Made by a program: the position numbers and the translations under genes. From NCBI GenBank assembly GCA_964497635.1, contig CAZCDB010000004.1:1-43574 (forward strand): a stretch of DNA of 43,574 bases, given 5' to 3'. How positions within the stretch are numbered: the stretch's first letter is position 1; every line of letters starts with the position of its first letter. Of this stretch, positions 12,201-29,192 are shown piece by piece. The notes under the pieces were generated by a model. That model saw nothing but the letters and a program-made list of their open reading frames with translations, was not told the DNA's origin and ran no database searches. Source of the DNA: an uncultured Planctomycetia bacterium. GTDB taxonomy: Bacteria > Omnitrophota > Gorgyraeia > 2-02-FULL-51-18.

Positions 12201-15200
12201 TTTTCTTCGGGGGATTTATCAGGCGCCAGAACTTTATCAATGCTGGATAACTCGTTGATCGTTTGTACATCGGTACCCACTGGATGAAATATTTTGCTGG
12301 CAGTGATAAATAGGGGGTTTTCACCGGGGACATCCAAAAGATAAGAAGCCTGCCTTTGGGCTTTGATGACCGCTTCTATATTTTCGAATTTTTTTCCTTC
12401 CCACTGGGAGGTTAACTGCTTAACAATAATCACTCTTAAGGACTCCTTGGGATCTGATTGAGTGACTGCATTTAAGATATCCACAAAAGGAACTTTGTAA
12501 GCATCCAACCATGTACCGCGACCAGAAAAAGATCCTGTGGCTCCCTTGATATTCTTAGCAAAAAGCTGGAAGCGGCGAGCAATCGTGCCTGGATTTCCAC
12601 CACTTAGCATGAACATCAGACGTTTGCCAACAAGGTCATTAAATATTTTAAGCCACTTTATTTGGAGTTTTTCATCCGCAATGTCGCTTCCGGGAAAATG
12701 CTCTTTATCGATATCGGCATCAATGCCAAGTCTGCGAATCGCTTGGATCATCTTGAGCGTGTTGTTGTAAGCCCATTCACGACCCTCAAAGGTTTCGAGG
12801 TATTTTTGACCATTAAGGGTTGGAACAGCATTGACAGCATCAAGATTGATTTCAGTGGATCCATCTGCCGCATAGCGACGGGTCTTAGCATGAAGCACTT
12901 CAGGGGTGACAAGAAAACCATTTTGATGGCCGATTTTAACGATATCTTTAACCGTTGTAAAAACAGGCTCAAGCCTCTCATCTGGCACAGAAGAATCCAA
13001 GTACACCATGATCTTGAGAGCTTTTATCTGCTGGATATGAGAAATGGCTTTTAAGAAATCATCCAGAGTTTTAAAACCAAGATCCTCGTGAAGAGTGCGA
13101 GGAGCGTTCCCAATCTCACGACCGGCCTCAGGCGCGCCATCCTTTAGGGCACCGTTGGGGGTTTTGCCGGATTCTAACTGAATAAAAAATTGGGAATCAG
13201 CGAACACAGGAAGATCTGGGTGAAGAATGATTGGCCCATACTCAGCCTCGGTAATCGCTCCCGCTTTTTGAGCGGCAATAATATCTGGGTGGCTGAGCGA
13301 AAGAAAAACATTATTTTTCACATAACCCATCATATTCTTCGGACTCACAAGAATCGCATGGTTATAGTCGGATATACCAGTAAACAAGCTGAGCTGGAGC
13401 TGCGGCTCGGTCAAACCAGAGCTTTTAAGCATCTCCCCTAGAAAATAAACAGCTCCCTGGTCGCCAGGGGTTACATTGCGATGACCCTCGGGCATCAAGC
13501 TCACGAGAGCTTTCCGCCGACCCTCACCAATCTGCTTCCACCAATCGGCGCCCTCGACATAAGGCCCATCGATGTGATCAAAAGGCTGACGTGCGAGACG
13601 AGCCGCAACAGTCGGAGCATAACTGCTTCTGGAAATATTCATACCGCGGCTATTCACAACAAGCGTTGAGACGTTGAGGCTGCCATTCAGCGATTCAACA
13701 CCGTTATCCGGAACAACTTGACCTTGTTCCGTTTTAAAAGTATTGGAAGAAGGAATGATGAAAGTCTGATAAAAATCAGCCGGAGGGACACTTTCAAGTG
13801 TAAATATTTTTTCTCCACTTTGAATGGCCTGGATATCCGCTTCACTGAAATAAGGTTGCTGGGTGGTCGGGTTGATGCGTGAACGAAGGGCTTCTAGATC
13901 TTCCGCTGAAAAAGCGAGTCGGTTATCCATATCTGTACTTGTCCGAGTGGACGAAGTTTTGACATAAACACCACTGCCCGCGGCTGTCTCCTTAACACCA
14001 TAGAAGCCTTGGTCTGAAACAATCTGTGCCACGCCTTTTGCGCCGCTCGAGGCTAGATTTCCTGCCGCTTGAAATGCGCTCATCGTCTCGGTGGCACCAG
14101 CAATTTGGCCGTAAACATGGCGGTCGTCAATAGCCGCGATCAACTGCGGAGTAATGGACCCTGATCCATACGTCGGCACCTTGACTCCCAAAGCGATCAG
14201 CTTTTTATACAACCGCTGATGCCGATGAGGTTTGGATCCATCCACAAGCTCTTTGCCCATGAGCTCAAAAGTGATCTCACTTAGAGGGATATTCGTTGCC
14301 GCAGAATGTGCTTTGAGCCAATCAATAACAGCATCTTCAAGAGAAAGCTTCCCGTCTCTTCCTACCTCAGCGGCATTGCGAGCAACTTTTGAAAAATCAA
14401 AAGTAACCGACCCTTTATAGACCAAAGCAAATGTTCGCAAAGTATCCGGAATAGGGATTATTTCTTTTGCGACCAAAATAACAGAGGTACCACGCCCTTC
14501 ATTTTTTGCAGGGTTTGTGGGATCAAAATTGGCCGTATTATTGGTGCCATCCAGCCCATCATTGCTGATCATGTAGGTAGCCGTGGACTTGCCGCTCACA
14601 GGCTCAAACCTTTCACCCTGTTCAATATAATAAGATCTTGGGTCTCCAACAAAATCAGCAACATCTTTCAACCCTTCAGAGTTGACCGCTACAAACGTGA
14701 CCTGAAACTGATCCGCGAGTCTTTGAAGACCTTCACGATGAATCCGTACCGCCAGCAAATCAAGAGTGTTTTTATCACCCTTTCCAATAAGACCGGACAA
14801 GTGAATCGCCAAGGCTGTTTCTTCTGTGATCTGACGCAGAGAAAATGGGATAAGATCCGCTGACTTAGGCGTTAGATTTGTAGCCAGACTATATTCGCTT
14901 GAACCAAGAGCAGGTGTTACCATCTGTCGCGCTCTTGCAATAATTTCATCAAAATCACTGGTCGTCCCAGGCTTGATAGCCGCAGGAACCACCGATCTAT
15001 TCCCTGGGGTCACCTGCAATGTTGGTGATGGCTCCCTTCCATCAATGAATGGGCTGGTATAATCGTTGGATCTCAGCGGAGATAACGTTCTAGGCAAACC
15101 GCTTGGAGCATTTTCTGGAGCAAAACGCTCTGGATCTTGCTCTGGATCTTCATCCGCCAACCTCGCCGCTGCAACTGATTTATCTACCAATCCCGCGACA

Positions 15201-16867
15201 GCCAACGAAAGTTTTGGGTTTCCGGCTTCCTCTACAAATCTTTGGGGAATCCGGTATGCTCCCGAAAACGTTCTCTGCCCGTCTATTCCGGCAATCAGGG
15301 CTTTTCCGTTAACCGTTCGCACGGTTTTGATGGGGCGCTTCAGAGGAGATAAAAGCACTTTCTCATATTTGGCCTGGTTGGTTTCAGAATTGACGTTGGG
15401 TGTGACCACGACATACGAATACCCTTTTTCTTTCAAAAGTTTTGCCAAGTGACGCGTATGATAACCGCCGGCGATGAGGGCGGCCATTTTAGAGCTCATC
15501 CCTTTTTCCAAATTTTTGATAAAAGCAAAATCTCTTTGATCCACCGCGCGATAAAATTTTTCGAGGGCAATACGACCTTCCTCAAGGTGTTTCTCAAGAG
15601 GGATCAAGCTATCGGTCAGGCCCTCTTCCAAAAGCGAGCGATTTAAAAAAGCTTGCCATGAAACGGTAGGAAAATCAGGAGTGTTCTCAAGAAAAGCAGT
15701 GAACTCATCCGACGTCATCTGAATGCGATAGGCTGTCTCTAAAAGACTCAAATATTGGTCAACCGCACGAAGCGTATGTGCAGCCTCATGAGTGAGAAGA
15801 CGCCCATAAACCACCTGCTCAAGTTTCTGGGACTGCTCAAGTAACTTCTCCATATCAAGCTTCGAAAACTTTTCCAAATAGGCCATGTAGCTCTGAAGCT
15901 TGGGTGTCGATGAAAGCGCGATATTCCGCTCTTTTGCCTGGGTAACGATTTTTTTAAGATACGCAAGCTGACCCACTCCCTTTTGCTTGGGCCCCATGGA
16001 CAATTCACGGGCAACATTTCCCGCGTCTGCAGCGCCAATCTTCTCCACTAGCGAAGCAAGCTCCAACTGCGCGAGGCTAAAATCAATCTTTTTTTCTTCG
16101 GTCAAAAGGACCGAAAGCCCGACAACTTCTTTAAACTGAGAAAAGCCCACGCCTTGTTTTTGCGCCACATCGACAAGTTTTTCGGGGGAGACGGTTCTGT
16201 TGGCCGACTTTTCATAAGATAACAAGGTGTATGGGTAGTGTCTTTTTTTAAGTTTTTCAACCGCCGTACGGGAGCTAGACAAATAATCAAGAATTTTTTC
16301 CCGCTGGTTGGCCAACTCAGCGTAGGCCTTTAAACCCTCCATGTACAAATCAAGATCCTCAACCCCTATCAACTTCATCGGCTGGGAAGACGTCAGATTG
16401 AGATATTCTTCCCCGGAAATTTCGGCATCACGTAAGTAACGGCCTGCGATACGTTTCATGGAAGAAGCGCTCATCAGCTCACGCAGAGGCCCCAAAGTCA
16501 CATCCCCACTTCCACCCTCGACAAAAACATCGGAGAACTGGTATCGATTCATCAGTTCTTCAAGAGTCTTGGCAAGATTCTCTTGTCCCGAAAGATTGGC
16601 ATGCGCATCCTGGATCAAAATCACAAGGGGTGCCGGGCTTCCGTTTTTTAGCGGGGCCTGGTAGCTTTCTTTATATTGACTGTACTGTGTCGGGACTTGA
16701 AAAGAAGACACATCGACAAAAGAAGAGGCTTTTGAAGACACCACGGGATTGGAAATTCCTGCGAGAGTGGCGGCCTGAGCTAAGTCAGAGACTGAAAAAG
16801 TAACGAGGAGTGCGAAGCTTAAAGACTTCACGATGGAGGAGGGACAAGACTTGTTTGATAGTTTCAT
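9299..16867 (-). CDS. Giant multidomain exported/membrane-associated protein 'B': N-terminal domain, then GlpX-like, LacD-aldolase-like and transaldolase-like modules, then a C-terminal domain
   Basis: Supplied ORF 9299..16879 (2526 aa). The track start at 16879 is a TTG. The ATG at 16865-16867 (MKLSNKS...) has GGAG 6 nt upstream, so I prefer it. The N-terminus ...SLSFALLVTFSVSDLAQA|A is signal-like. Confidence 0.9.
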   Translation of the reverse strand: MKLSNKSCPSSIVKSLSFALLVTFSVSDLAQAATLAGISNPVVSSKASSFVDVSSFQVPTQYSQYKESYQAPLKNGSPAPLVILIQDAHANLSGQENLAKTLEELMNRYQFSDVFVEGGSGDVTLGPLRELMSASSMKRIAGRYLRDAEISGEEYLNLTSSQPMKLIGVEDLDLYMEGLKAYAELANQREKILDYLSSSRTAVEKLKKRHYPYTLLSYEKSANRTVSPEKLVDVAQKQGVGFSQFKEVVGLSVLLTEEKKIDFSLAQLELASLVEKIGAADAGNVARELSMGPKQKGVGQLAYLKKIVTQAKERNIALSSTPKLQSYMAYLEKFSKLDMEKLLEQSQKLEQVVYGRLLTHEAAHTLRAVDQYLSLLETAYRIQMTSDEFTAFLENTPDFPTVSWQAFLNRSLLEEGLTDSLIPLEKHLEEGRIALEKFYRAVDQRDFAFIKNLEKGMSSKMAALIAGGYHTRHLAKLLKEKGYSYVVVTPNVNSETNQAKYEKVLLSPLKRPIKTVRTVNGKALIAGIDGQRTFSGAYRIPQRFVEEAGNPKLSLAVAGLVDKSVAAARLADEDPEQDPERFAPENAPSGLPRTLSPLRSNDYTSPFIDGREPSPTLQVTPGNRSVVPAAIKPGTTSDFDEIIARARQMVTPALGSSEYSLATNLTPKSADLIPFSLRQITEETALAIHLSGLIGKGDKNTLDLLAVRIHREGLQRLADQFQVTFVAVNSEGLKDVADFVGDPRSYYIEQGERFEPVSGKSTATYMISNDGLDGTNNTANFDPTNPAKNEGRGTSVILVAKEIIPIPDTLRTFALVYKGSVTFDFSKVARNAAEVGRDGKLSLEDAVIDWLKAHSAATNIPLSEITFELMGKELVDGSKPHRHQRLYKKLIALGVKVPTYGSGSITPQLIAAIDDRHVYGQIAGATETMSAFQAAGNLASSGAKGVAQIVSDQGFYGVKETAAGSGVYVKTSSTRTSTDMDNRLAFSAEDLEALRSRINPTTQQPYFSEADIQAIQSGEKIFTLESVPPADFYQTFIIPSSNTFKTEQGQVVPDNGVESLNGSLNVSTLVVNSRGMNISRSSYAPTVAARLARQPFDHIDGPYVEGADWWKQIGEGRRKALVSLMPEGHRNVTPGDQGAVYFLGEMLKSSGLTEPQLQLSLFTGISDYNHAILVSPKNMMGYVKNNVFLSLSHPDIIAAQKAGAITEAEYGPIILHPDLPVFADSQFFIQLESGKTPNGALKDGAPEAGREIGNAPRTLHEDLGFKTLDDFLKAISHIQQIKALKIMVYLDSSVPDERLEPVFTTVKDIVKIGHQNGFLVTPEVLHAKTRRYAADGSTEINLDAVNAVPTLNGQKYLETFEGREWAYNNTLKMIQAIRRLGIDADIDKEHFPGSDIADEKLQIKWLKIFNDLVGKRLMFMLSGGNPGTIARRFQLFAKNIKGATGSFSGRGTWLDAYKVPFVDILNAVTQSDPKESLRVIIVKQLTSQWEGKKFENIEAVIKAQRQASYLLDVPGENPLFITASKIFHPVGTDVQTINELSSIDKVLAPDKSPEEKARIISLAWILSNLGRDGIVYHNYQQLEEAVQNKKFWTVLGVPVKEIRQIKKEITQAVAARLALSPNAQVIYENVILEPKLLAQAQNGELTPQSYISFKLKTSSASFAEAAAEAAFEELDQNGFFWTPRIFIPAKDLPKTSVLRLTRLQSNGLHHDAFVLDGVPSKINSPQLNQLLQERLRDPNLSWQDYVRIFIEELGAQDITTNQSLIDAVIKKYISDPKSEIYQQAMTGKAAGNSARDIYLALYAKVAVQAAQLLRVNKGRASHETSPNTLDPQELLAEARTIHENFRANGVFGYVKIGNVVDADRKVGVQAVELATREGISVNVTLLFTAQHVLDNIEAYIQGLENRNVDGNPLANIHSVLSLFVSRVDIAVDPLILKAEGDASTPEIKERISMLRGKVAIAQTQLAYRVIQSIYSNENLALQPGLLDPATLEKIEDLRGRFSALRLQGANPQRLLIASSGTKKDKQPYADPLSYVLPLLGDRNLNTLPQDAFEATALYVESQSDEQLQNVADKQLVRKGLPKLIQTADNHDVWRQILLRDGRELDSEDTITADQVLLDLNELVLGPNNTSIDAVGDRLLKDGAEAFRVAEKSTIDTVQAAIAAARLASPSAAKRFESSTKPTGIRFAANATLPAPVGRVSVQPFLTLAGNGAVLTAIAQSGLPSAAIALASGTRDFSVSARPDGRGNVFVGGTDGAELLYAPTDRDQKAVDEKDQDTEALTQVSQRSQAQIQAAAGLFDATLEETAVLKTNALRVIRIADRVGQVQSLERQKQLLVGQLFALLQISNAKDVSNFRFRVEIGRELLADKTVQVFLNILSSKNVVVGMDEKVVDPTTGRVAEEFNMASTANLSSLVQGKGYLPFKAFTEDGEATSIYTRDIFHTLTASLQNPKDPSAAFVAQHVSFFPVGVDTGDARPAIIAFLSGEVQNAQGWIQAWAVPLVRVTLEQALRLERMMRALDIAA
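10367..10381 (-). other. [AG]ARL[AS] boundary motif, copy B4 (AARLA)
   Basis: gcg gca cgc ttg gcg (residues 2167-2171). Context AAIAAARLASPS, directly after the transaldolase-like module. Confidence 0.8.
10400..11512 (-). other. Type-2 (long) transaldolase-like module inside ORF B
   Basis: GRASHETSP, GYVKIG (Schiff-base Lys context), EGISVNVTLLFTAQ, HSVLSLFVSRVD, RGKVAIAQTQLAY, GANPQRLLIASSGTK, PYADPLSYV and NLNTLP appear in the same order as in actinobacterial-type transaldolases (recalled from memory). Confidence 0.8.
12014..12028 (-). other. [AG]ARL[AS] boundary motif, copy B3 (AARLA)
   Basis: gcg gca cgc ttg gcc (residues 1618-1622). Context TQAVAARLALSP. Confidence 0.8.
12320..13072 (-). 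other. Class I (LacD/tagatose-bisphosphate-type) aldolase-like TIM-barrel module inside ORF B
   Basis: By-eye match to LacD segments. ALKIMVYLD matches AVKFLLYYD. GFLVTPEVL matches PFFLEVLTY. IDADIDKEHFP matches VDVLKVEVP (Lys). LMFMLSGGNPGTIARRFQLFAKNIKGATGSFSGRGTW matches [37 protein letters not shown]. Confidence 0.55.
13592..13606 (-). other. [AG]ARL[AS] boundary motif, copy B2 (AARLA)
   Basis: gcg gct cgt ctc gca (residues 1092-1096). Context APTVAARLARQP, directly after the GlpX-like module. Confidence 0.8.
13616..14830 (-). other. Class II fructose/sedoheptulose-bisphosphatase (GlpX)-like module inside ORF B, with insertions
   Basis: TEETALAIHLSGLIGKGDKNTLDLLAV matches GlpX ESAALAGYKWLGRGDKNTADGAAV. 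ISNDGLDGT matches AVDPIEGT. KPHRHQRLYKKLIALGVKV matches KPRHDAVIAEMQQLGVRV. YGQIAGATET matches YGIGGAPEG. STLVVNSRGMNISR matches TETLLIRGKSRTIRR. Confidence 0.65.
15155..15169 (-). other. [AG]ARL[AS] boundary motif, copy B1 (AARLA)
   Basis: gcg gcg agg ttg gcg (residues 571-575). Context KSVAAARLADED, at the end of the N-terminal domain. Confidence 0.8.
15272..16708 (-). repeat. Paralogous N-terminal domain, copy in ORF B (partner 7661..9097)
   Basis: See the partner entry. The order is the same and there are very few indels. Confidence 0.9.
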
Positions 16868-16960
16868 TAGAATCTCCAATTTAATGCAGGTTTACAATGA
16901 AAGATAGTGGAATTGTACATGAGGCTTCCTCACAAAACAAGAGCAGAAAAGTTAAAAATT

Positions 16961-17563
16961 TTACTTTTTTTTAAAAAATAAGATTATCTTTTTTTTAGCT
17001 TTACTAAGCGCTTTTGAGCGATGGCTAATTTTATTTTTCAAGTCTTGTGACATTTCGGCAAAAGTTTTTTTACTGCCTGACGGAACAAAAACTGGATCAT
17101 ACCCAAAACCATGTTCGCCCCGAGGCTCGGTGGCAATATGTCCGTGGCATTCCCCTCTCACACAAGCCACAAATTTTCCACGATCGTAGAGCGCCATACA
17201 AGAAACAAACTTCGCCTTACGCGAAATACCCGGCTTCTTAGCCAAAAGATTTAAAAGTTTTTTGTTGTTGTCCTGATAGCTGCAGTCCTCCCCCGCAAAC
17301 CGTGCCGAATAAACCCCCGGCTTGCCGTTGAGTGCGTGAACCATAAGTCCCGTGTCATCCGCTAGTACAACACTTTGGGTAAAAAGAGAATAGGCTCGTG
17401 CCTTTTTGCGAGCGTTGGCTTCCAAAGTCTTGCCATCCTCCACCGCCTCAGGACAACCCGGAAACTCCGCCAGAGACCGTACGCAAATCTTGCTTGCCTT
17501 TAACAAGGCTGAGATTTCGCGTAGCTTGCCTTTATTGTGCGTGCCCAGAACAAGTTCCTTCAT
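16961..17563 (-). CDS. rdgB: Non-canonical purine NTP pyrophosphatase (RdgB/HAM1 family)
   Basis: 200 aa. Carries THNKGKLREI, VLADDTGL, GKPGVYSARFAG, EPRGEHGFGYDPVF and KNKISHRSKA, which are typical family motifs. Confidence 0.9.
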   Translation of the reverse strand: MKELVLGTHNKGKLREISALLKASKICVRSLAEFPGCPEAVEDGKTLEANARKKARAYSLFTQSVVLADDTGLMVHALNGKPGVYSARFAGEDCSYQDNNKKLLNLLAKKPGISRKAKFVSCMALYDRGKFVACVRGECHGHIATEPRGEHGFGYDPVFVPSGSKKTFAEMSQDLKNKISHRSKALSKAKKKIILFFKKK

Positions 17564-17669
17564 CCCGCTCTCCTAGATTTTGTGCCATAGCATGGGGACC
17601 TGACAAACCCCTTTTTTTGGTAGTATACGAAACGAAGGCCTCTGAAACAACAGTCAGATCATGCCGCGT

Positions 17670-19073
17670 TTAAACCTTCACATCCCAAAGCGGTATCTTA
17701 AGATGCTGTCTAAAATTCTCACCTTTCAGTGGCTGCATCTTCCTCTGAGAAAAATCCCCTCTCTGGCCCAAATGCTGGCGATGCTGCCTCAAGACATCGC
17801 TTGAGGCAAGATGAAGCGTGTGTTTGCCATACATGGCCGCGGCCTCATCAATGGTTTTTGAAATCTCGCGCAATCCTGTGATTTTGACAGGATCATCAAA
17901 TAAATCTCTTTGGACTTCTAGCCCATACTCAAGGTCATGAAACCACACACCTGTCGCTCTGTACTTTGTCCCAGATTGAAAAAGTGAATCAAAAAGCTTG
18001 GAGACAATCTCAACCCCCTCAAGAGGCGAGTCTGTATGCCGCTTAAGCTCTGCAAAAAGACCCTGGCCTCGATAATCCTGATTTTTAAGATAGACTCCTA
18101 TCCCTTTGGTGCGCAGATGGTGGCGTCTTAGCTTAATAAACGCCGACTCCATATTGCGTATCAGCTGAGCCCTTACAAAATCCCGATCGCTGGAGGCGGG
18201 TGTAAACGTCTTGGTTTTACTCAAAGACGCCTGCGCCTCTTTCTTTTCTGTAAGAATCGGATAAATAGCTTCCCCTCGCAGCTCATGCCAAAGCTCAGAG
18301 CCAATCTTACCCAAGAGTTTTCTTGCAAAAGCTTCCGGCTTTTGAACATATTCCCAAACTGTATGAACGCCGTGCTTGGCCAAAAGTGCCGTACTGGCTG
18401 GCCCAAAACCACAGACACGCTCAACGGGGACCGTCTTAAGATAATCTCCTAGTTCATACCCTCTCACGCAAGTAAACCCCGATGGCTTGCCGTCTTTAGA
18501 GCAGATCTTGGCGAGCGCTTTGGTAAGGCTAAGGCCAACGGACACGGTGATCCCCAGCTCCTTTTCAATTGTATTTTTGATATCAAAAGCAATGGCTTCG
18601 TAAGAGCTATGATAAACACGCCGCAAACCCGTAAGAGACGCAAACGCTTCATCGATGGAGTATTCTTCTACCTCAGGAGTAAAGCGTCTTAAGATCGCAT
18701 AAAATCTCTGAGAAAATAAGCTATAGGACTCATAGTCGCAGGGCAAAAAAACGGCCTCTGGGCAAATTTTTTTGATCTCAGACAATCGCATGGCCCGCAC
18801 CACGCCTGCGCGCTTGGCTTCATAACTAAAAGCCGCTGCGATACCTCGATCCTTTCCCACAATCACAGGCTTTCCTTTAAGGGCTGGCTTGAGAGACTGC
18901 TCTACGCTAGCAAAAAAAGCATCACAATCGACATGAATAATTGCTTTTGGAAGAGAGTGGAGACTGATCAAAGATTGACTATTTGTATTTTCGGACAACG
19001 GCGACAATGACTCCTCCGATTTTAAGCTCTTCTTTGGGTTTGATCGGGGCGTATTTCTTATTGGCGGCAACAA
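17670..19073 (-). CDS. Y-family (DinB/UmuC-type) translesion DNA polymerase; 5' end unresolved
   Basis: IIHVDCDAFFASVEQ and SIDEAF motifs. The maximal ORF starts at a TTG at 19073 and overlaps lexA by 95 nt. An in-frame TTG at 18969-18971 lies just after the lexA stop. There is no in-frame ATG before the catalytic core. Confidence 0.85.
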   Translation of the reverse strand: MLPPIRNTPRSNPKKSLKSEESLSPLSENTNSQSLISLHSLPKAIIHVDCDAFFASVEQSLKPALKGKPVIVGKDRGIAAAFSYEAKRAGVVRAMRLSEIKKICPEAVFLPCDYESYSLFSQRFYAILRRFTPEVEEYSIDEAFASLTGLRRVYHSSYEAIAFDIKNTIEKELGITVSVGLSLTKALAKICSKDGKPSGFTCVRGYELGDYLKTVPVERVCGFGPASTALLAKHGVHTVWEYVQKPEAFARKLLGKIGSELWHELRGEAIYPILTEKKEAQASLSKTKTFTPASSDRDFVRAQLIRNMESAFIKLRRHHLRTKGIGVYLKNQDYRGQGLFAELKRHTDSPLEGVEIVSKLFDSLFQSGTKYRATGVWFHDLEYGLEVQRDLFDDPVKITGLREISKTIDEAAAMYGKHTLHLASSDVLRQHRQHLGQRGDFSQRKMQPLKGENFRQHLKIPLWDVKV

Positions 19074-19560
19074 GACTCACTTCTTTGCCATTTTTTTCAT
19101 AGTATTTCATCGTCCACTCATGATCCACTTCCGCAATCACAATATCGCGATGCTTTGGCTGCCTTCCTCGTTCTACCAAAACAAGGTCGCCCTCGTGAAT
19201 GCCCGCATCGATCATCGAGTCACCCGATACTTTGATAAGAAAAGTCTGGTCGGGGTGTCTGACAAGATATTCATCAAGGCTCATGGTGTCGACAAGCTCT
19301 TCTTCCGCCGGGCTTGGCCATCCAGCTTGCACCGTGCCCAGAAGCCTGATACCCCCCAATGAAGCAAAAAGAATCTTGCCTTGCTTATCTTTTTTTAGAA
19401 AACCTTTATCAACGAGCTTGTCGACAAGCCAGAAGGCGGCGTTCTTGGATTTATACCGGAAGAGCTTGCGAAGCTCCTCAAAACTAGGCGGGCGTTTATT
19501 TTCTTGAGAAAATTGACGAATCTTCCGCGTGGCTTTATTTAAATCGATGGTTTTTGGCAT
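18979..19560 (-). CDS. lexA: LexA-type SOS repressor (N-terminal winged helix plus S24 self-cleaving peptidase)
   Basis: 193 aa. Cleavage-site context VQAGWPSPAEE (A-G), VSGDSMIDAGI (catalytic Ser) and WTMKYY (Lys). An ATG at 19558-19560 has GAGAGGG upstream. Confidence 0.85.
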   Translation of the reverse strand: MPKTIDLNKATRKIRQFSQENKRPPSFEELRKLFRYKSKNAAFWLVDKLVDKGFLKKDKQGKILFASLGGIRLLGTVQAGWPSPAEEELVDTMSLDEYLVRHPDQTFLIKVSGDSMIDAGIHEGDLVLVERGRQPKHRDIVIAEVDHEWTMKYYEKNGKEVSLVAANKKYAPIKPKEELKIGGVIVAVVRKYK

Positions 19561-22496: not shown

Positions 22497-23024
22497 TTAG
22501 ATCTTTCTGCTGTCATAGGCCCAATGAAGCAAGGCTTGGCGTTGACGAGGGCGACACTTTAAATCATGTGGGTAACAATTATTTTTAATTTGGCTGATGT
22601 GTCTTCGGATGGCCAACCAGCGTTTTATCTGCCAATCATCTTCTTCGGGCAACCGACGACCCATATAATATCGACAATACCATTGGAACCATCCGCGGGG
22701 ATCCTCCGGATAAATCCATCCTTTTTTTCGCCATACGGACAACGGTTGGCTGGCATTGACCCCAAAATAATTCAACGATGCATCATGCTTTTCTGGGCAA
22801 AGCTTTGCTTCTGTGAACCAGTCGGCAGGAAATTCTTTTTTGCAGTCGGTCATGTATTTGCCGCCGAAGACCCCCAGCTTCAACATCCGCTTGGGAGTTA
22901 GCTCCGGCTTAAAGCGCGGATCAAAGTTCTTTCCTGGGGCCTGCGTCAATTCATAATGATAATTCTTCTGCATCTTGTCGGTTACGGCAACTATTTTGCG
23001 CAGTTTTTTCATCGATTGAGCCAC
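22497..23024 (-). CDS. Conserved hypothetical protein (Trp/Tyr/Arg-rich, GWFQWYCRYYMGRR motif)
   Basis: 175-aa ORF with a 16-nt overlap with the end of tspO. I cannot name a family. Confidence 0.6.
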   Translation of the reverse strand: MAQSMKKLRKIVAVTDKMQKNYHYELTQAPGKNFDPRFKPELTPKRMLKLGVFGGKYMTDCKKEFPADWFTEAKLCPEKHDASLNYFGVNASQPLSVWRKKGWIYPEDPRGWFQWYCRYYMGRRLPEEDDWQIKRWLAIRRHISQIKNNCYPHDLKCRPRQRQALLHWAYDSRKI

Positions 23025-23497
23025 CAGATCGCCAAATTAAGATAAGTTGCGAAACTTACCCAGAGAAGATAGGGCGTCAAAAAAATTCCTGTCCACCGAT
23101 CAACGCGGTAACTACGGCTCACAAAAAAAATAAGACAAACCTCTAGCGCGACAATGTCGGCAAGAGCTATTCCCGGATTGCGCAGCCCAAAAAACAAAAA
23201 CGACCATACACCGTTAAGAATAAGTTGCAGGACAAAAAAGAGCTTCAATTTCTTTGTTTCCGGATTATCGCCGCTCCAAATGCGCCACCCAGCGATCGCC
23301 ATAAAAATATAAAGCGTCGTCCAAACAGGGGCAAAAACCCAATCCGGAGGATTTAGCAAAGGCTTTTCAAGAGCGGCGTACCAGGACGTCCGGGATGACT
23401 CCGTGACTGCCCCGCCAAACCAGCCGACAAGAAGGCAGATAAGTACAAATACGAGTAATACGGTTATACGTTTTAGGGTTTCAAATAATCGTATCAA
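23009..23497 (-). CDS. tspO: TspO/MBR tryptophan-rich sensory protein
   Basis: 162 aa with five hydrophobic helices. Carries LNPPDWVFAPVWTTLYIFMAIAGWRIW. A TTG start overlaps the stop of the upstream mini-lipoprotein. Confidence 0.85.
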   Translation of the reverse strand: MIRLFETLKRITVLLVFVLICLLVGWFGGAVTESSRTSWYAALEKPLLNPPDWVFAPVWTTLYIFMAIAGWRIWSGDNPETKKLKLFFVLQLILNGVWSFLFFGLRNPGIALADIVALEVCLIFFVSRSYRVDRWTGIFLTPYLLWVSFATYLNLAIWWLNR

Positions 23498-23644: not shown

Positions 23645-24058
23645 CTATTTACCGCCAATGTGTTTGAGCGTTTCGCCCGTGTCTGCATCAATAAATACAA
23701 ACAAATCACCACCCTTAACGCCCTGCGCTTTTGGCGCAAAATAAACGGATTTATATTCTTTATCTTTCAGCTCTGGGTACTTTTTTTCGGGCGTAGTCGG
23801 CATGGCAGCATCCCATTTCTGGGTAGCTTCATTATAAGTAGATTCTCCATTACGCGTTAGATGCTTTTTAATGAAATTATTGCCTTCATTATAAATTATA
23901 TTCATTTCTTTGGTCTTGTAACCAAGTTCTTGAGCTTTTTTGACAGCGATCTGAATTATTTTTTCTTTTGTTAATTTATCGGTCTGAGAAAAGGCCACTG
24001 AAGATGCAAAGCACAAAACAATAAGAAGTAGCAACGAGAATAATCTATTAGACATCAT
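23645..24058 (-). CDS. Small secreted protein, PepSY-like by pattern
   Basis: 137 aa. Signal peptide MMSNRLFSLLLLIVLCFASSVAFS|Q. The C-terminus GGDLFVFIDADTGETLKHIGG resembles the PepSY beta-hairpin. AAAGGAGAA RBS. Confidence 0.6.
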   Translation of the reverse strand: MMSNRLFSLLLLIVLCFASSVAFSQTDKLTKEKIIQIAVKKAQELGYKTKEMNIIYNEGNNFIKKHLTRNGESTYNEATQKWDAAMPTTPEKKYPELKDKEYKSVYFAPKAQGVKGGDLFVFIDADTGETLKHIGGK

Positions 24059-24183: not shown

Positions 24184-24924
24184 TCAGGTCTTTACATTTA
24201 ACAATCGTTTAATTCGGCCGCTGTCGCAATAACCACTCAGGCGATCTTCCTCTAAAAATCGCTTATTCATCAGCGAAATAGCCGCCTGACTTAAAATTTT
24301 TGTTCCTTCGAGCTCCCTGGCAATCTCCATCAAGGATAAGGGGGTGTGGGTTTTAAGATAATGAACCAGAAATTTTTTTTGCCGGGCCGGATCCGCTGTC
24401 ATGCGGCCGATTTGCTGCTTAATAAAAGAAATATCGGACGGCTTTTGAAGTCGTCTTAGATTGGAAATCGAGGGATCCTTTTTCCTAGGTAAAAATTTCT
24501 CTTTCATCTCTTCAATAAACGTATCCGACCCCAAAAGGCAGCCGCCCTGACACGCCCGACTGGGATCCCAGGGTCTAGAATACCCCTCCAAGGTAAATTG
24601 ATGAAACAATGTTAAATCTTTAAACTGAGAAAGAATAAAACTTGTGTCCATAAAAGCGAAGGTCTTGCGCTTTTTATAAAACTGCCCATAACTAGACCAT
24701 GGGTAGCTTTCCGGTGACTTGGCAAGACCGGCTTTGACAGGATTTACATGGATGTAGCGGGACAGCTCGAGGGAATAGCTGTCGTGGTCAACCAATATCG
24801 CCTTGTAGCGTCCCTGAAAAAGCGGCCCCACTCGCTTGCGTCGGCGGTTGAAGGTCTGCGTGTAAAGCCCATTAAGCTCACGCATGATCTTCGAGAGATT
24901 TGGCTTTGGAGTTTGTAAATACAA
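24184..24924 (-). pseudogene. 5'-truncated REP-associated/IS200-like Y1 transposase (RayT-type) with DnaA-C-like HTH tail
   Basis: Begins at ..YLQTPKPNLSKIMRELNGLYTQTFNRRRKRVGPLFQGRYKA...YIHVNPVKAGL..YPWSSY. The HUH-containing N-terminal half is missing, and an in-frame TAA lies 18 nt upstream. Confidence 0.7.
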
Positions 24925-24942
24925 ATTGACCCTCCCCCTGAA

Positions 24943-25149
24943 TTAAACCACCCGTAAGTAGAGTCCCGGGTTTTGTTGTTGGTATTTTTTCATGAATTCT
25001 TCAGGGGTTAGGTTGTCCAAAGAATCATGAGGTCTTAACGTATTGTACTCGATCCGCCAGTTTTCAATAACCTCCTTTGCTTCGTTTAAATCCAGGAAGT
25101 AGTTCTCATTCAAGCAGCCATCCCTGAATTTGCCGTTGAAAGACCTCAC
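24943..25149 (-). mobile_element. IS3-family transposase (OrfB) C-terminal fragment, ~68 codons only
   Basis: SFNGKFRDGCLNENYFLDLNEAKEVIENWRIEYNTLRPHDSLDNLTPEEF is the extreme C-terminus of DDE IS3 integrases. No catalytic core lies upstream. Confidence 0.75.
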
Positions 25150-25217
25150 CCTTTTTCTTTTACGCCGTCTAAACTTTTTGATTTCTGACTTCGATGCTGT
25201 TTTACGGGGCTTTCTAA

Positions 25218-27767
25218 CTAAAATACTTCGATCAGACGCCTGGCCTCGTCCATTCTTGATAAAGAAACGGGCAATGTATCCCCAATGCTCACATTAGATT
25301 GAGCTTTGTTTGTCCCTTCCGCTGATGACGAAACAAGAATTGCCTGAATAGAATTTTCATATTCCAATATAAATTGCCCCTGCCTATTTTGCCCGACAAC
25401 CTTCATGCTATAAGGTTGGCCATATTTAAAAAACTGGTGATTTGGAAATTTTTTTTCGAAGAACAACTTCCTGGATAAAACTACTCGCCTACGAGTTGCA
25501 TCCAAGTCTTTTATGACAAAACCATATCTACCATCAAGCGCCAGCAGGTCGCCTACCTTGGTCACAAAGAACAAATTCGTTAATTCACCTTTTGGAATCA
25601 CACACTCAAATTCGGCTGGCTTGCCATCTAATTTGATAATTGCCCCCCAATTTTCTACTTTGGATACATTGCCCGTAACAAACTCCCCAATCTTAAAATG
25701 TTCTTGAAACATCACCAAGGGGTTCGGCAGGGTGCGTTTTCTACTTGCCCATATCATGCTTCGGCTTGAATCCAGGTGTAACAAGCGCACACGGACTTCG
25801 CTGCCAGGTGGAGTCAAGCGCCGAAGATCGGGGACATAATTCCAATCTGCTTCTGATATCAAAACAACCCCAGAAATATTATCCTCAAATACTAAATTAA
25901 ACGCTCCCCGATTCACATTCGATACTTTGCCAACCACCTCGGCATTTTTATGTTTTTCATAAAACTGCTCCACAGGATTAGGAAGCGCTTCCTTTCGACT
26001 TAAAAAGATAGATTGGTTTTCTAAATCAATTTTTATAATTTTGACTTTAACCACCTGATCGATTTCAAATTTTAAATTATCAATTACCCCTTCCATCCAA
26101 TCCAAATTATTCTTAAAAATCACGCCCTCAACCCCCACCTCCAACTCACAATAAAGTCTTCTTTCTTGAATTCCGCAAACCCTTACGTCAACGATATCGC
26201 CCACGGTATATTTTGTTGCCACCAATTGCCATGGCTCAGGTCTATTTTTTATTACCATCTTTAAACTTTTATAGCGCGGGTCGAATCCAACGGAGCTCAC
26301 TTGAATATTTTGTCCAATAGAATATTGCGCTTTTAGATCCCTCGAGCGACTGTAACTGGCGTTACCGTATGATACAAAGCCCTTCATGCCATCATCTAAT
26401 CGCATGACCAGACCTGAATCAATAATCGATTCAATATGTGCAGAAATTGATGCATCCGAAGAATACTTTTTTTCGATTCTGTCAATCGGGTCAGTTTCAG
26501 TTCCCACATTTGAAAGGATGATATTTGACACATCCTGGCAGTCTAGAACCCGCAATCTCAACTCATCTTCATTATGAAAATACAGCTCGGGCTTTGGCAT
26601 AGTTGATTTACTTAGCTGATTAACTGGAATTTTAACGGTCATCCCACCTACGTCCACTTCAACGCCTGCGCTATTCACCCTCGTAATAAGTGCTTCGACT
26701 TGCTCGCCCTTATCCTTGGCCTGTTGAAGCGATTCCTTGGTTTCGTTCAGTAATCCCTCATAGTCCAATTTAAATAACGCAACTACGACAGGAATGTCTT
26801 TGGAGTAGTTCTTTTTGAAGAGAATTTCGTGGTAATTCTTATTTACATGCAACGCTTTCCTGATATCTTCCAATAACTCGGATTGCCAATCCCCACGTGC
26901 AAAAAAATAAAAAGTTTCAATTCCGTTTAAAGTTAAATATTTTATTCTTTGTAGATACGCAGTCATTCCAAACTCCTGGAATGTTTCACGCTTTGAAACA
27001 AGAATTATCCCGAGCTTGATATGTTTTTCAGCAAACTTTAGTTGGCTTTTTTCGTCTTTGCGTCTTACGGACAAACTATGCATAAACTTAAAAAATTTCT
27101 CGGATTCTTGCACGTGAACTTCGGTTGTCAGATTAGGGAAGATTGCTTGCCCAAAATCTTTATATTCTTTAAGCAGCACTGTCCCGAGATATCCAGCTTC
27201 GTCAATTTCATTTACCTGAAGGTAAAGCGTTCTCAACCCTTCTTTTGCATCTAAAGCTGGCTTAAGATAACTATCATCAAAATATCGAATACCTTCCTTT
27301 TCATTGTTTTTAAGTAGGGCCTGTCGAATAACGCTTAAATCTATTGCTTGGGAAATATTAGGACGCAGATACGGCTTAACTTCTCGGAGCAGTGCAAAAT
27401 TAACGTAACTAACGGTTGCCTTGACCAAGTTTTCTGTATTGTCCCTCGAAAACTTCATCCGAATTATTGGGGTCTTGTTGTCCAATAACGCCTTGATATT
27501 GTCTTCATCAGCAACTTCAACTTTTACACCAGGCAGTATCAGATCCTTGTAATCCTTGTTGATGAATTTTGTAAAAAGATTTAGACTGCCCTCAATTTTA
27601 TTTTTAACACTTGATTTTCTGAAATATTTTCCGCAACCGCCCAATAAGCCACATAAATCGCCCCAAATCTTTTTAATAGTGTCGTAATACTTGAAGCATG
27701 CCCAGATAGAAAGCGCCCAGACAGGGATAATAGTTAGGGTTAATCCATAACCCTTAAAAATAAACAT
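25218..27767 (-). CDS. Membrane-anchored protein: N-terminal TM helix, ~330-aa unassigned domain, then six tandem S1/OB-like repeats
   Basis: 849 aa. TM segment LTLTIIPVWALSIWACF. The repeats (residues ~354-849, nt 25221..26708) each have the shape G-x-V-x-G-x-V...G-x-x-V...G-x-x-G-x-I/V...V-x-V-x-I...R-x-x-LS-R-K. Examples are VGDIVDVRVCGIQERRLYCELEVGVEGVIFKNNL...VVKVKIIKIDLENQSIFLSRKE and IGEFVTGNVSKVENWGAIIKLDG. The gene is visibly more AT-rich than its neighbours. Confidence 0.75.
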   Translation of the reverse strand: MFIFKGYGLTLTIIPVWALSIWACFKYYDTIKKIWGDLCGLLGGCGKYFRKSSVKNKIEGSLNLFTKFINKDYKDLILPGVKVEVADEDNIKALLDNKTPIIRMKFSRDNTENLVKATVSYVNFALLREVKPYLRPNISQAIDLSVIRQALLKNNEKEGIRYFDDSYLKPALDAKEGLRTLYLQVNEIDEAGYLGTVLLKEYKDFGQAIFPNLTTEVHVQESEKFFKFMHSLSVRRKDEKSQLKFAEKHIKLGIILVSKRETFQEFGMTAYLQRIKYLTLNGIETFYFFARGDWQSELLEDIRKALHVNKNYHEILFKKNYSKDIPVVVALFKLDYEGLLNETKESLQQAKDKGEQVEALITRVNSAGVEVDVGGMTVKIPVNQLSKSTMPKPELYFHNEDELRLRVLDCQDVSNIILSNVGTETDPIDRIEKKYSSDASISAHIESIIDSGLVMRLDDGMKGFVSYGNASYSRSRDLKAQYSIGQNIQVSSVGFDPRYKSLKMVIKNRPEPWQLVATKYTVGDIVDVRVCGIQERRLYCELEVGVEGVIFKNNLDWMEGVIDNLKFEIDQVVKVKIIKIDLENQSIFLSRKEALPNPVEQFYEKHKNAEVVGKVSNVNRGAFNLVFEDNISGVVLISEADWNYVPDLRRLTPPGSEVRVRLLHLDSSRSMIWASRKRTLPNPLVMFQEHFKIGEFVTGNVSKVENWGAIIKLDGKPAEFECVIPKGELTNLFFVTKVGDLLALDGRYGFVIKDLDATRRRVVLSRKLFFEKKFPNHQFFKYGQPYSMKVVGQNRQGQFILEYENSIQAILVSSSAEGTNKAQSNVSIGDTLPVSLSRMDEARRLIEVF

Positions 27768-28009
27768 TAGACTGATCCTTCGGAGAACTTCTCATGACAA
27801 ATGGGATCGCTACAAACAAATTTATAACTTTTATCTTGCGCGGAGAAAATCGCCAGCAGATTGGAATCGTCGAGTATAGAAGAACAATAGACGCACTTAA
27901 GATCCCTTCCTAAAAACCGATCATAGACATCGATAGCTATTAGCGCCTTCTTCAGATCTTCGTCAAGCAGGGCCCCAATTATTCGTTTATCCATTCTTTC
28001 TCCACCCAT
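27767..28009 (-). CDS. Small Cys-rich (Zn-ribbon-like) protein coupled to the S1-repeat gene
   Basis: 80 aa (75 aa from the ATG at 27994). CVYC...CSDPICH. Its TAA shares one base with the ATG of the 849-aa gene (TAATG). Confidence 0.55.
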   Translation of the reverse strand: MGGERMDKRIIGALLDEDLKKALIAIDVYDRFLGRDLKCVYCSSILDDSNLLAIFSAQDKSYKFVCSDPICHEKFSEGSV

Positions 28010-28099
28010 GAGGTGTCGCCAACTGTATCCCAGTTGTATCCGAAGCCAAATTTTGACTTACAAATACCTTAACTTTACCTTTGATATCAATCACTTGCG

Positions 28100-28837
28100 T
28101 CATCTTACCCCCCAGATTTTGTGCATCTGAGGGATCACGCGCACATCAAAAAGCTCTTTTTTAGCTTCAGCGAAAAATTGGTTTTCGATGAGTTTGAGTG
28201 AAGTAGTATTAATTCCAAAGGGGTCGCTCAAGGGTTGAAAAATAAAAGGGAGCTTGGCGTTTACGTTTTTGACCAGACGGATGCATTCCTTAATTTCGCC
28301 CAAAGCGGTCGTGGGAGTCACCACAATTTTGACAAACACTTCTTTTTCAATCGCGATTCTTAAAAATTCTTCGTGCTCGCGCGTAAAGTCACGATCCCCT
28401 GTGCTCGACGACGGCTTCAGATCCATCGCGATGATGTCGCACCAGCGGATCACCTCTTTAAGCTGTCCTGGCAAAGTACCGTTGCTTTCAAGATAAGTCG
28501 TGATCCCCCTCTCCTTCAGTCTCGGCAGAAGATTGCAAAGAAAAGGGGTATAAAAAAAAGGTTCTCCCCCGGTCAGAGACACCGAGTGATGAGCGCCCTT
28601 TTCTTTTTCAAAATTGTCAACCTCCGCCAGCACCTGATCCAGCGAATACACCGAAAAGTTTTCAGCCTTCATTTTTTCCAGCTCATCGCAATACCCGCAG
28701 TGCATATTGCAACGCCCAAAGCGGACAAAAATCTGCTTCACTCCCAAGTACGGCCCTTCCCCCTGAATCGAGGAAAAAATCTCGGAAATCTCGGTCTCTG
28801 TCGCCCGATCCATAATTTTATTTTTCATAACTGGCAC
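28100..28837 (-). CDS. queE: 7-carboxy-7-deazaguanine synthase (radical SAM)
   Basis: SSIQGEGPYLGVKQIFVRFGRCNMHCGYCD (CxxxCxxC). The track start is a GTG, and an ATG lies at 28828. Confidence 0.85.
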   Translation of the reverse strand: MPVMKNKIMDRATETEISEIFSSIQGEGPYLGVKQIFVRFGRCNMHCGYCDELEKMKAENFSVYSLDQVLAEVDNFEKEKGAHHSVSLTGGEPFFYTPFLCNLLPRLKERGITTYLESNGTLPGQLKEVIRWCDIIAMDLKPSSSTGDRDFTREHEEFLRIAIEKEVFVKIVVTPTTALGEIKECIRLVKNVNAKLPFIFQPLSDPFGINTTSLKLIENQFFAEAKKELFDVRVIPQMHKIWGVR

Positions 28838-29192
28838 ACGCGTCCGGCGTCTCCCAAACGGTTACTTTTGAAATTCGGGCACTGGTCGACTTGACTCGAA
28901 GTCTTAGCTCCTCATAAATCAAGCGGGCAATATTTTCCGTGGAAGAGTTGACCCCCGTATTTTTAAATCGCGGATGTTCATTGAGCGAAGTCAGATGAAG
29001 AGTCGACAACACCTCTCGTAGAGCCGGTTTTACCATTTCAAAATCCATTACCACCCCCATCGAGTCCAGCGCCTGAGCCTCGGCTTTGACCGCGACTTTC
29101 CAGTTGTGTCCGTGACGATGCTCCCAGCTGCCATCATAAAGCTTCAAAGCGTGGGCCGCAGAAAACTCATCCTCGATCACTATTTCATACAT
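28818..29192 (-). CDS. queD: 6-carboxy-5,6,7,8-tetrahydropterin synthase
   Basis: 124 aa. FSAAHAL...HGHNWKV, the PTPS-family His triad pattern. Confidence 0.85.
   Translation of the reverse strand: MYEIVIEDEFSAAHALKLYDGSWEHRHGHNWKVAVKAEAQALDSMGVVMDFEMVKPALREVLSTLHLTSLNEHPRFKNTGVNSSTENIARLIYEELRLRVKSTSARISKVTVWETPDACASYEK

Follow-up and report, generated by a model that had tools for sequence, protein, structure and literature searches.

The described systems closest in position to the locus analysed here are PrrC, RloC and TgvAB, which are embedded in type I restriction-modification (RM) operons. In a preprint on 'guilt by embedding' (bioRxiv 10.1101/2024.01.29.577857), PrrC serves as the paradigm and is cited as almost exclusively RM-embedded. 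For TgvAB, an RM-embedded two-gene unit, a defence function has been shown experimentally (PMC11411939). Embedding in a type I RM operon is an accepted pointer to defence, with TgvAB and PrrC as precedents. We analysed a stretch of 43,574 nucleotides from an uncultured Planctomycetia bacterium (Omnitrophota in the GTDB lineage; assembly GCA_964497635.1, contig CAZCDB010000004.1, forward strand), which is referred to as the window. Downstream of queE it carries a two-gene cassette, consisting of a small partner gene of the four-cysteine zinc-ribbon type and an 849-codon core gene for a protein that combines a predicted membrane anchor, an Alba-like domain and six S1 domains (Table 1). Like TgvAB, the pair is a two-gene unit, and relatives of it (L059/L060, L064) occupy the same slot in type I RM operons as PrrC, RloC and TgvAB, on one strand and with gaps of a few bases, whereas the window copy follows queE instead.

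The likeness to these systems is one of position. No relation in sequence or fold to PrrC, RloC or TgvAB was found, and the pair has no ABC-ATPase, anticodon-nuclease or GmrSD domain when compared with Pfam, NCBIfam and PADLOC. The two window proteins gave no match in PADLOC-DB v2 at E<=0.1, which agrees with the first-pass annotation of this DNA, where the cassette could not be assigned to any named defence system. Ten family members compared with the same database were also without a match, save a chance-level Cas6b hit for one of them (P0245, E=0.047).

Two-component abortive-infection systems such as lambda RexAB, and those with the membrane effectors of CBASS, Pycsar and retrons, link the sensing of infection to a membrane-inserted protein, and they are found on prophages and islands. 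The pair described here may follow a similar logic. It is not homologous to any of them, however; its sensor-like and membrane parts are predicted to lie in one polypeptide with a single helix, a signalling-nucleotide enzyme is lacking, and membrane damage would be hypothetical in this case. The pair resembles RM-embedded defences in its position and two-component abortive-infection systems in its logic.

Other known proteins share single parts of the core protein. Ribosomal protein S1 (rpsA) also has six S1 OB-fold domains, but the first 350 residues of the core protein are unrelated to it and the core locus is accessory. The Alba proteins (Sso10b, Rpp20-Rpp25) share the fold of residues 244-334; those are small and soluble and associate with chromatin or RNA in archaea and eukaryotes, whereas here the domain would be part of a bacterial, membrane-anchored multidomain protein. 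RNase Y likewise has a membrane anchor followed by an RNA-binding module, and some members of the present family carry KH domains as well; the HD nuclease domain of RNase Y is not found in the family, and RNase Y belongs to the core genome whereas the family is accessory and mobile. As in type II toxin-antitoxin (TA) modules, a small first gene is translationally coupled to a larger second one. Apart from self matches, the S1 array was most similar to that of P0002 (E=2.5e-38), a public protein of 1290 aa in which the GmrSD_N and GmrSD_C domains of a type IV restriction enzyme are joined to six S1 domains and, at the C-terminus, to Hfq. This fusion indicates that S1 arrays are used elsewhere in restriction-type proteins. 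It shares the S1 array alone with the core protein, which lacks the GmrSD nuclease, and P0002 in turn lacks the membrane and Alba core. Judged by sequence, the pair is not rpsA, belongs to no PADLOC family, is unrelated to PrrC, RloC and TgvAB and does not contain the nuclease of RNase Y.

We put the probability at about 0.55 that the pair is a mobile module for nucleic-acid-sensing defence or exclusion, a candidate role that is suggested by the genomic contexts of its relatives. These contexts were taken from relatives with enough flanking sequence. At L059/L060 the order is hsdM-hsdS-pair-hsdR, all on the same strand with gaps of less than 12 nt, and at L064 hsdM, hsdS and the pair are followed by a Schlafen gene (AlbA_2/HATPase_c_4). 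A further copy (L041) precedes a YgjP-like gene and an HsdR-like helicase, the latter read from its translation, and is probably also RM-embedded. In L065 the pair lies between DUF3732/AAA_23 and SMEK genes, and in L037/L038 it is followed by IS3 remnants and by the BREX genes brxL and brxC/pglY. RadC, Dcm, an unassigned gene and Vsr precede it in L029, where another unassigned gene and SMODS/AGS_C follow; in L032 it comes after RadC_N, an N6_N4 methyltransferase/NmeDI_C gene and an unassigned gene, and in L031 a ParE toxin adjoins it. Three copies (L069, L071, L073) stand directly behind the series traJ-K-L-M-N-O-Q of conjugative transposons, which were taken to be of the Bacteroidales type from open reading frame (ORF) sizes and family counts. 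Beside another copy lie DnaB and a primase (L070), a phage metallopeptidase is found near L046, and in Marinitoga camini virus 1 the pair is located between SSB/replication genes and the terminase. Further neighbours were ArdA (two loci), RadC (three loci, plus L029 and L032), ORF6N, integrases and PDC-S05.

The neighbourhood of the family is that of a mobile accessory module travelling with defence genes. The first-pass annotation had suggested a defence or RNA-sensing island and had recommended asking whether the two genes co-occur elsewhere. They do, in several cases within defence loci. The defence part of the suggestion gains from the contexts in relatives (RM operons, BREX, conjugative transposons and a prophage), but finds nothing to lean on beside the window copy, where no recognised defence gene is present.

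The same annotation had regarded the cassette as an orphan, which does not hold. When the first 355 residues of the core protein were compared exhaustively by HMMER with 1.84 billion representatives (50%-identity clusters), the search recovered 822 of them at E<=1e-3, 489 at E<=1e-10 and 38 at E<=1e-30, and the two genes are always found together. A word-indexed protein search with the same 355-aa N-domain returned zero matches, not even the parent protein, so that 'orphan' calls from fast searches appear unreliable for divergent families; with the full protein as query, this search was swamped by rpsA-like S1 proteins. No model of Pfam, NCBIfam, PADLOC or PHROG covers the N-domain. Among the best 150 of the 822 representatives, 74 are 300-400 aa long and comprise the N-domain alone, 43 have 800-900 aa and 27 are intermediate in length. 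Pfam domains were assigned in 60 longer members, with S1 in 38, NusA-type KH_5 in 11, and C2H2 zinc fingers and CooT in one each. Since the N-domain is constant and the C-terminal domains vary, we conclude that a constant core carries interchangeable nucleic-acid-binding arrays. The full-length 849-aa protein itself is confined to near-identical contigs.

Members of the family were found in Omnitrophota, in Bacteroidales-type elements, in a metagenome-assembled genome (MAG) of the Deltaproteobacteria, in a contig binned to Gemmatimonadetes/Verrucomicrobia and in a Thermotogae phage. Cassettes that are at least 85% identical in amino acid sequence sit in non-homologous flanks. With two family members as query, none of 72,556 records of sequenced plasmids and one of 50,697 records of sequenced phages gave a match; IMG/VR contributed one locus, and no match there when P0150 was the query. 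One sequence of about 15 kb that includes the pair occurs in MAGs of two phyla (L044, Gemmatimonadetes; L045, Spartobacteria) from one study, which reflects either a binning error or a very recent transfer.

The small partner accompanies the core throughout the family. It was present upstream of the core gene in 12 of the 12 contexts inspected at the outset, with all core types represented: S1-type (P0123, P0124, P0125, P0126), KH-type (P0199, P0240) and stand-alone cores (P0150, P0203 and UF08_10/UF08_11 of Marinitoga camini virus 1), together with three MAG loci. A metagenome scan yielded 38 loci; the core ORF could be delineated in 34, and 33 of these have a partner with the cysteine pattern. 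The exception (L050) has just 34 nt of DNA upstream of the core ORF. The pairing of the zinc-ribbon gene with the core is obligate. In the contexts inspected, the partners are ORFs of 70-96 aa directly upstream, most of which overlap the core start by 1-20 nt, while in other relatives the gap amounts to a few nt. In the window, the stop of the small ORF overlaps the ATG of the core gene (TAATG). As the partner is found with every type of core, whether S1 or KH arrays are present or absent, its most likely role is one exerted together with the constant core.

An alignment of eight partners showed four invariant cysteines in the pattern CxxC...Cx4C (C39, C42, C66 and C71 in the window), which suggests a protein of the zinc-ribbon type; no family match was obtained in Pfam, PDB or PHROG. 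The true start is likely the second ATG at 27994, which is preceded by GGAG and gives 75 aa, the length also called publicly on near-identical contigs. Both genes are real and under strong purifying selection, as shown by the ratios of non-synonymous to synonymous substitution (dN/dS) in comparison with the copies on two short public contigs that carry the same cassette (L005, 80% nt identity; L006, 94% nt identity): these were 0.09-0.13 for the partner and 0.05-0.07 for the core gene. We considered whether the partner is an acidic nucleic-acid mimic and dropped this idea; its isoelectric point is 4.9 in the window and ranges from 4.4 to 9.1 across the family.

The core protein is predicted to begin with a single transmembrane helix, YGLTLTIIPVWALSIWACF, with a Kyte-Doolittle mean of 1.6 across 19 residues, the sole such segment in the 849 aa. 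The same feature is common in the family: 89% of 150 members have a segment of at least 1.6 within the first 70 residues, with a median of 2.3. The residues that follow the N-terminal helix are basic, and from these features we infer a protein that is anchored in the membrane once and lies mostly in the cytoplasm. For the N-terminal core, AlphaFold2 gave a useless model without an alignment (predicted local distance difference test, pLDDT, 36.8), whereas an alignment of 74 stand-alone relatives raised the pLDDT to 92.8, with a predicted template modelling score (pTM) of 0.88. Foldseek compared this model with the PDB, and most of the top 20 matches were Alba proteins (7dl8, 3wbm, 1h0x, 1udv, 1vm0) aligned to residues 244-334, with template modelling scores (TM-scores) on the target of 0.55-0.76 and probabilities of 0.96-1.0. 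The family profile also matched Alba chains best (1nfh, 2z7c, 7dl8) when searched against the PDB, weakly at E=0.05-0.13 and with a plausible motif (PY..RI...G...YLLARG in the family, NYV...G...V.IKARG.AI in Alba). The agreement between structure and sequence-profile methods supports the assignment of residues 244-334 as Alba-like. Residues 27-243 had no structural match in the PDB by Foldseek and no match in Pfam or NCBIfam. One full-length structural relative was found in BFVD, an uncharacterised protein of 346 aa from a gut siphovirus (E=5.5e-20, TM-score 0.83).

The remainder of the core protein is the S1 array (Pfam S1, E=1.9e-37). Iterated hidden Markov model searches delimited five clear repeats, at residues 351-425, 441-504, 523-592, 607-679 and 694-767, and a degenerate sixth at 775-849 was recognised by eye. 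Models of rpsA reach the S1 part alone and stay far below their cut-offs (205.3 bits against 577 for TIGR00717 / PRK06299, with other rpsA models also far short); residues 341-619 align with the mRNA-binding middle of these models. No HD or other nuclease domain was detected by Pfam in the window protein or in the 60 longer relatives.

Based on these features, a mechanism can be proposed in which the ligand is probably single-stranded nucleic acid from an invader, bound by the variable S1 or KH array and the Alba-like domain together. Candidates for this ligand are phage transcripts and incoming or replicating single-stranded DNA. The constant core and the zinc-ribbon partner would probably turn this binding into an output at the membrane, with the partner most likely binding the constant core as a regulator or co-sensor. 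The output might be growth arrest or abortive infection by way of the membrane anchor, or else sequestration of the invader nucleic acid.

A more far-reaching idea, which we raise with considerable reserve, is that the pair might be the founding example of a new kind of bacterial immune module. In such a module, membrane-tethered, swappable S1 or NusA-KH arrays and an Alba-like domain would sense transcripts or single-stranded DNA of the invader, and the zinc-ribbon partner would halt the infection at the membrane; it would often act as a second line in type I RM or BREX loci and be spread between phyla by conjugative transposons and prophages. Literature searches on S1, Alba or KH domains in defence contexts, and a term search within the guilt-by-embedding preprint, retrieved no description of the family. 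If the proposed role holds, the pair would represent a previously unnamed, widespread two-gene system whose recognisable parts are limited to nucleic-acid-binding modules and a membrane anchor. The fold of its core is confidently predicted and lacks a solved relative, except in the Alba-like domain, which is itself unusual for a bacterial protein. Exchange between S1 and KH arrays on a constant core would be the signature of a sensor under diversifying pressure. This raises the testable questions of whether bacteria detect phages with RNA-binding arrays that derive from translation and transcription proteins, and what role 'embedded' genes play inside type I RM operons. For annotation, it is likely that family members are mislabelled as 'S1 RNA-binding domain protein' or 'ribosomal protein S1'. 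The family is sizeable and modular and the hypothesis can be tested directly, yet hundreds of embedded candidate families exist.

Within the window, the cassette is part of an island of about 23.6-28.1 kb, which was acquired horizontally and lies in a recombination hot spot that begins at the 3' end of queE. The first-pass annotation had described this stretch as more AT-rich than its flanks, and computation bears this out. The fraction of guanine and cytosine (GC) is 0.397 for the core and partner genes (25218-28009) and 0.409 for 24184-28103, compared with 0.474 in the remainder of the window. In a profile of 816 sliding windows of 2792 nt each, with a mean of 0.467 and a standard deviation of 0.024, the minimum of the whole 43.6 kb (0.394) is located at 25151, about 3 standard deviations below the mean. 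The AT-rich run that had been quoted as an example, TTTTATAATTTTGACTTTAACC, occurs once, at 26031-26052. At third codon positions, GC is 0.39-0.41 in the 80-codon and 849-codon ORFs and 0.36 in a 137-aa ORF further downstream, while queE has 0.54, queD 0.53, murI 0.54 and tspO 0.47, with most neighbours at 0.47-0.58.

Also as annotated, the cysteine-rich 80-aa ORF and the 849-aa S1-repeat ORF are followed by a 68-codon IS3 fragment and a 5'-truncated RayT-type gene. Behind the core gene there is a spacer of 68 nt, then the 68-codon ORF, a gap of 18 nt and an ORF of 246 codons. The former corresponds to the last approximately 50 residues of an IS3-type transposase (rve_3, E=2.4e-18, positions 20-67 of 67; NF033516, positions 319-368 of 369). 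This tail alone is present; a complete IS3 OrfA/OrfB with a DDE integrase core was not found. The 246-aa ORF matches the REP-associated tyrosine transposase model NF047646 with E=1e-11 and 44.9 bits, below the curated cut-off of 80, and Y1_Tnp with E=0.01. As the NF047646 match is restricted to positions 65-146 of 146, the N-terminal HUH part is missing, and the IS3 end, which lies 18 nt upstream, appears to have interrupted the RayT-like gene. The annotation had read the cassette as a horizontally acquired two-component module and had named beforehand what would speak against this: an unremarkable composition, conservation of the pair next to queE as core genome, or a clear housekeeping homologue. 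Since the composition is deviant, the pair is not part of the syntenic core and no housekeeping homologue was identified, this proposal survives.

The evidence on synteny comes from 17 Omnitrophota loci with queE (59-89% aa identity; Candidatus Omnitrophota MAGs, some labelled Planctomycetia). The block helicase-amidase-murI-queD-queE is kept in these 17 loci wherever the contig extends far enough upstream, and none of them encodes a relative of the 80-aa or 849-aa protein. The cargo on the 3' side of queE differs among all 17 (L007-L023) and includes MazEF-like, Doc/PIN-like, methyltransferase, TIR-like, AAA ATPase with IS21-like, and LexA-like genes, labels that were read from translations and not from a domain scan. 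In one relative (L017), Ham1/rdgB comes directly after queE, its start overlapping the stop (ATGA), whereas in the window Ham1 (16961-17563) is 10.5 kb away from queE; in another (L022), tspO follows 1.4 kb past queE. The differing cargo and the distances between queE and Ham1 identify the queE-Ham1 interval as a hot spot of variation, with the queE 3' end as an apparent site of integration throughout the lineage. The low-GC stretch is the most recent-looking layer of this interval. An umuD-like S24 peptidase gene and a Y-family polymerase (IMS) gene form a pair at 17670-19560 (minus strand) within the same interval; such SOS-mutagenesis pairs are common as cargo of mobile elements.

The two short public contigs also bear on the border of the island. 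L005 has the same junction with the final queE codons as the window. In L006, just the last 36 nt of queE stand ahead of the cassette, preceded by the end of an unrelated gene (L006 1-180). These junctions suggest that the queE 3' end is a recurrent insertion point, with the last 36 nt as the probable site. The queE remnant of L006 may have arisen through an att-like duplication, or else through chimeric assembly. Direct repeats, inverted repeats and a second copy of the queE 3' end were considered as border repeats, and none was significant.

Several observations weigh against a role in defence or exclusion. The function is read from genomic context throughout, and the contexts sampled number a few dozen loci, with no matched control for enrichment. 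No known defence gene adjoins the pair within the window, and in L044/L045 it is surrounded by transporter genes, where neither defence nor mobile genes were seen. The contexts at the end of tra operons and with ArdA or RadC fit element establishment or anti-defence equally well. In the pair itself no enzymatic or pore-forming effector domain was recognised, and the conserved polar residues (N113, E201, R235, Y287 and others) suggest no known active site; the E-values for Alba are weak (0.05-0.5), though two independent methods concur. With regard to the island, no flanking direct repeats and no delimiting integrase were found. An exact 11-nt copy of the queE 3' end, GCACAAAATCT, is located at 17575-17585, 12 nt upstream of the Ham1 start and at the predicted far border of the queE-Ham1 interval, but it is not significant alone, as its score is equalled by chance elsewhere in the window.

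One alternative would be a TA or addiction module, in which the zinc-ribbon protein neutralises a membrane-anchored, RNA-binding toxin and the pair persists by stabilising its carrier elements, without a dedicated anti-phage role. The translational coupling of the small upstream gene to the larger one, in the window as well as in relatives, is what such a module would show, and so are the obligate pairing, the sporadic distribution in non-homologous flanks and the location on conjugative transposons, on prophages and beside another TA gene (ParE). However, this 'toxin' has no known toxin fold and its partner no DNA-binding antitoxin domain, and recurrent positions inside type I RM operons or beside BREX, SMEK and Schlafen-type genes are more typical of defence genes. 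We regard a TA module as unlikely, bearing in mind that many TA-like pairs are defences themselves, so that the two readings overlap. It seems similarly improbable to us that the pair serves the mobile element, with a membrane-tethered single-strand binder that handles or protects single-stranded DNA or early transcripts at entry, counters host defences or excludes superinfection. S1, KH and Alba domains are all able to bind single-stranded nucleic acid, and such a task would suit the position directly after traQ at the tra-operon end in three loci of the conjugative transposon type, the neighbours ArdA, RadC, ORF6N and integrases, the early/replication region of Marinitoga camini virus 1 and the company of DnaB and primase in L070. 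An anti-restriction gene would make little sense, though, between chromosomal hsdS and hsdR or beside BREX; the family is nearly absent from sequenced plasmids and phages, no conjugative element can be recognised around the window copy, and a role in exclusion would in effect be defence and merge with the explanation we favour.

Least compatible with the data among the alternatives, and in our view highly improbable, is a lineage-specific housekeeping RNA-binding protein that is AT-rich by chance, either a paralogue of S1 at the membrane or a protein that organises mRNA turnover or localised translation in the manner of RNase Y. The six S1 domains as in rpsA, with partial matches to rpsA models, could be read in this way, as could the strong purifying selection and the strand shared with queD and queE with no intervening terminator, and the combination of a membrane anchor with KH or S1 domains is reminiscent of RNase Y and RNase E. 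The gene is nevertheless absent from 17 of 17 related genomes that share the flanking block, its composition is deviant and transposase remnants lie alongside. Moreover, the protein falls far below every rpsA cut-off, the N-terminal ribosome-binding part of rpsA is replaced by an unrelated domain, a catalytic HD or RNase domain is lacking, and the contexts of the family are mobile or defence-related.

Table 1. Positions of the cassette, its neighbours and the parts of the core protein (nucleotides of the window, or residues of the core protein where stated)
Feature	Position	Strand	Basis or match
queD	28818-29192	minus	
queE	28100-28837	minus	radical SAM
Last 36 nt of queE (final 11 codons and stop), left border of the island	28100-28135	minus	comparison with L006
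Leader from queE stop to partner gene, 90 nt	28010-28099	minus	
Partner gene, 80 codons from the first ATG, putative four-Cys zinc-ribbon type	27767-28009	minus	
Core gene, 849 codons (predicted membrane anchor, helical domain, Alba-like domain, six S1)	25218-27767	minus	
Predicted single transmembrane helix, codons 7-26	27690-27749	minus	Kyte-Doolittle; model helix 8-26
Family-defining part, codons 27-243 (helices, small sheet, helical bundle; predicted)	27039-27689	minus	AlphaFold2
Alba-like beta-alpha-beta-alpha-beta-beta domain, codons 244-334 (predicted)	26766-27038	minus	Foldseek, family profile
Six S1 (OB-fold) domains, codons 351-849	25221-26717	minus	Pfam S1
Modelled helix	residues 8-26		
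Two further modelled helices	residues 28-72		
Modelled small sheet	residues 82-104		
Modelled helical bundle	residues 110-233		
Modelled beta-alpha-beta-alpha-beta-beta unit	residues 244-334		
Modelled linker helix	residues 336-352		
IS3-type transposase tail, 68 codons	24943-25149	minus	rve_3, NF033516
RayT/REP-associated tyrosine transposase-like ORF, 246 codons	24184-24924	minus	NF047646, Y1_Tnp
ORF of 137 codons, signal-peptide-like N-terminus, GC 0.37	23645-24058	minus	
tspO	23009-23497	minus	

Every gene between 19.6 and 30.8 kb is carried by the minus strand. No terminator-like site was found in the leader between queE and the partner gene. The leader is kept along with the cassette in L005 and L006 and holds a CAACTG-GGATA-CAGTTG hairpin. 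A structured RNA in this leader was left as a weak candidate, with a fold z-score of just -2.2 and no match in Rfam. A called ORF of 38 aa across the queE stop was rejected as a gene; it is broken or unconserved in L005. The 137-aa ORF between the transposase remnants and tspO has a weak match to DUF6488 (E=7e-4, below the cut-off) and no homologue in the queE loci of relatives. It probably belongs to the same acquired low-GC stretch as the cassette.

At the right end of the window there is a complete 5S ribosomal RNA (rRNA) gene (42354-42470, minus strand) and the 3' part of a 23S rRNA gene (970 nt at 42598-43574, minus strand), which runs off the window end. These genes indicate that the DNA is chromosomal, and the ORFs listed inside this region are spurious. 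Towards the left end, a giant ORF of 2526 aa is located at 9299-16879 (minus strand), and 1.45 kb of its sequence is 70% identical at the nt level to 7659-9103, about 6 kb away. Judged by this repeat, the region probably contains two giant paralogues in tandem, one of which runs off the left end of the window.

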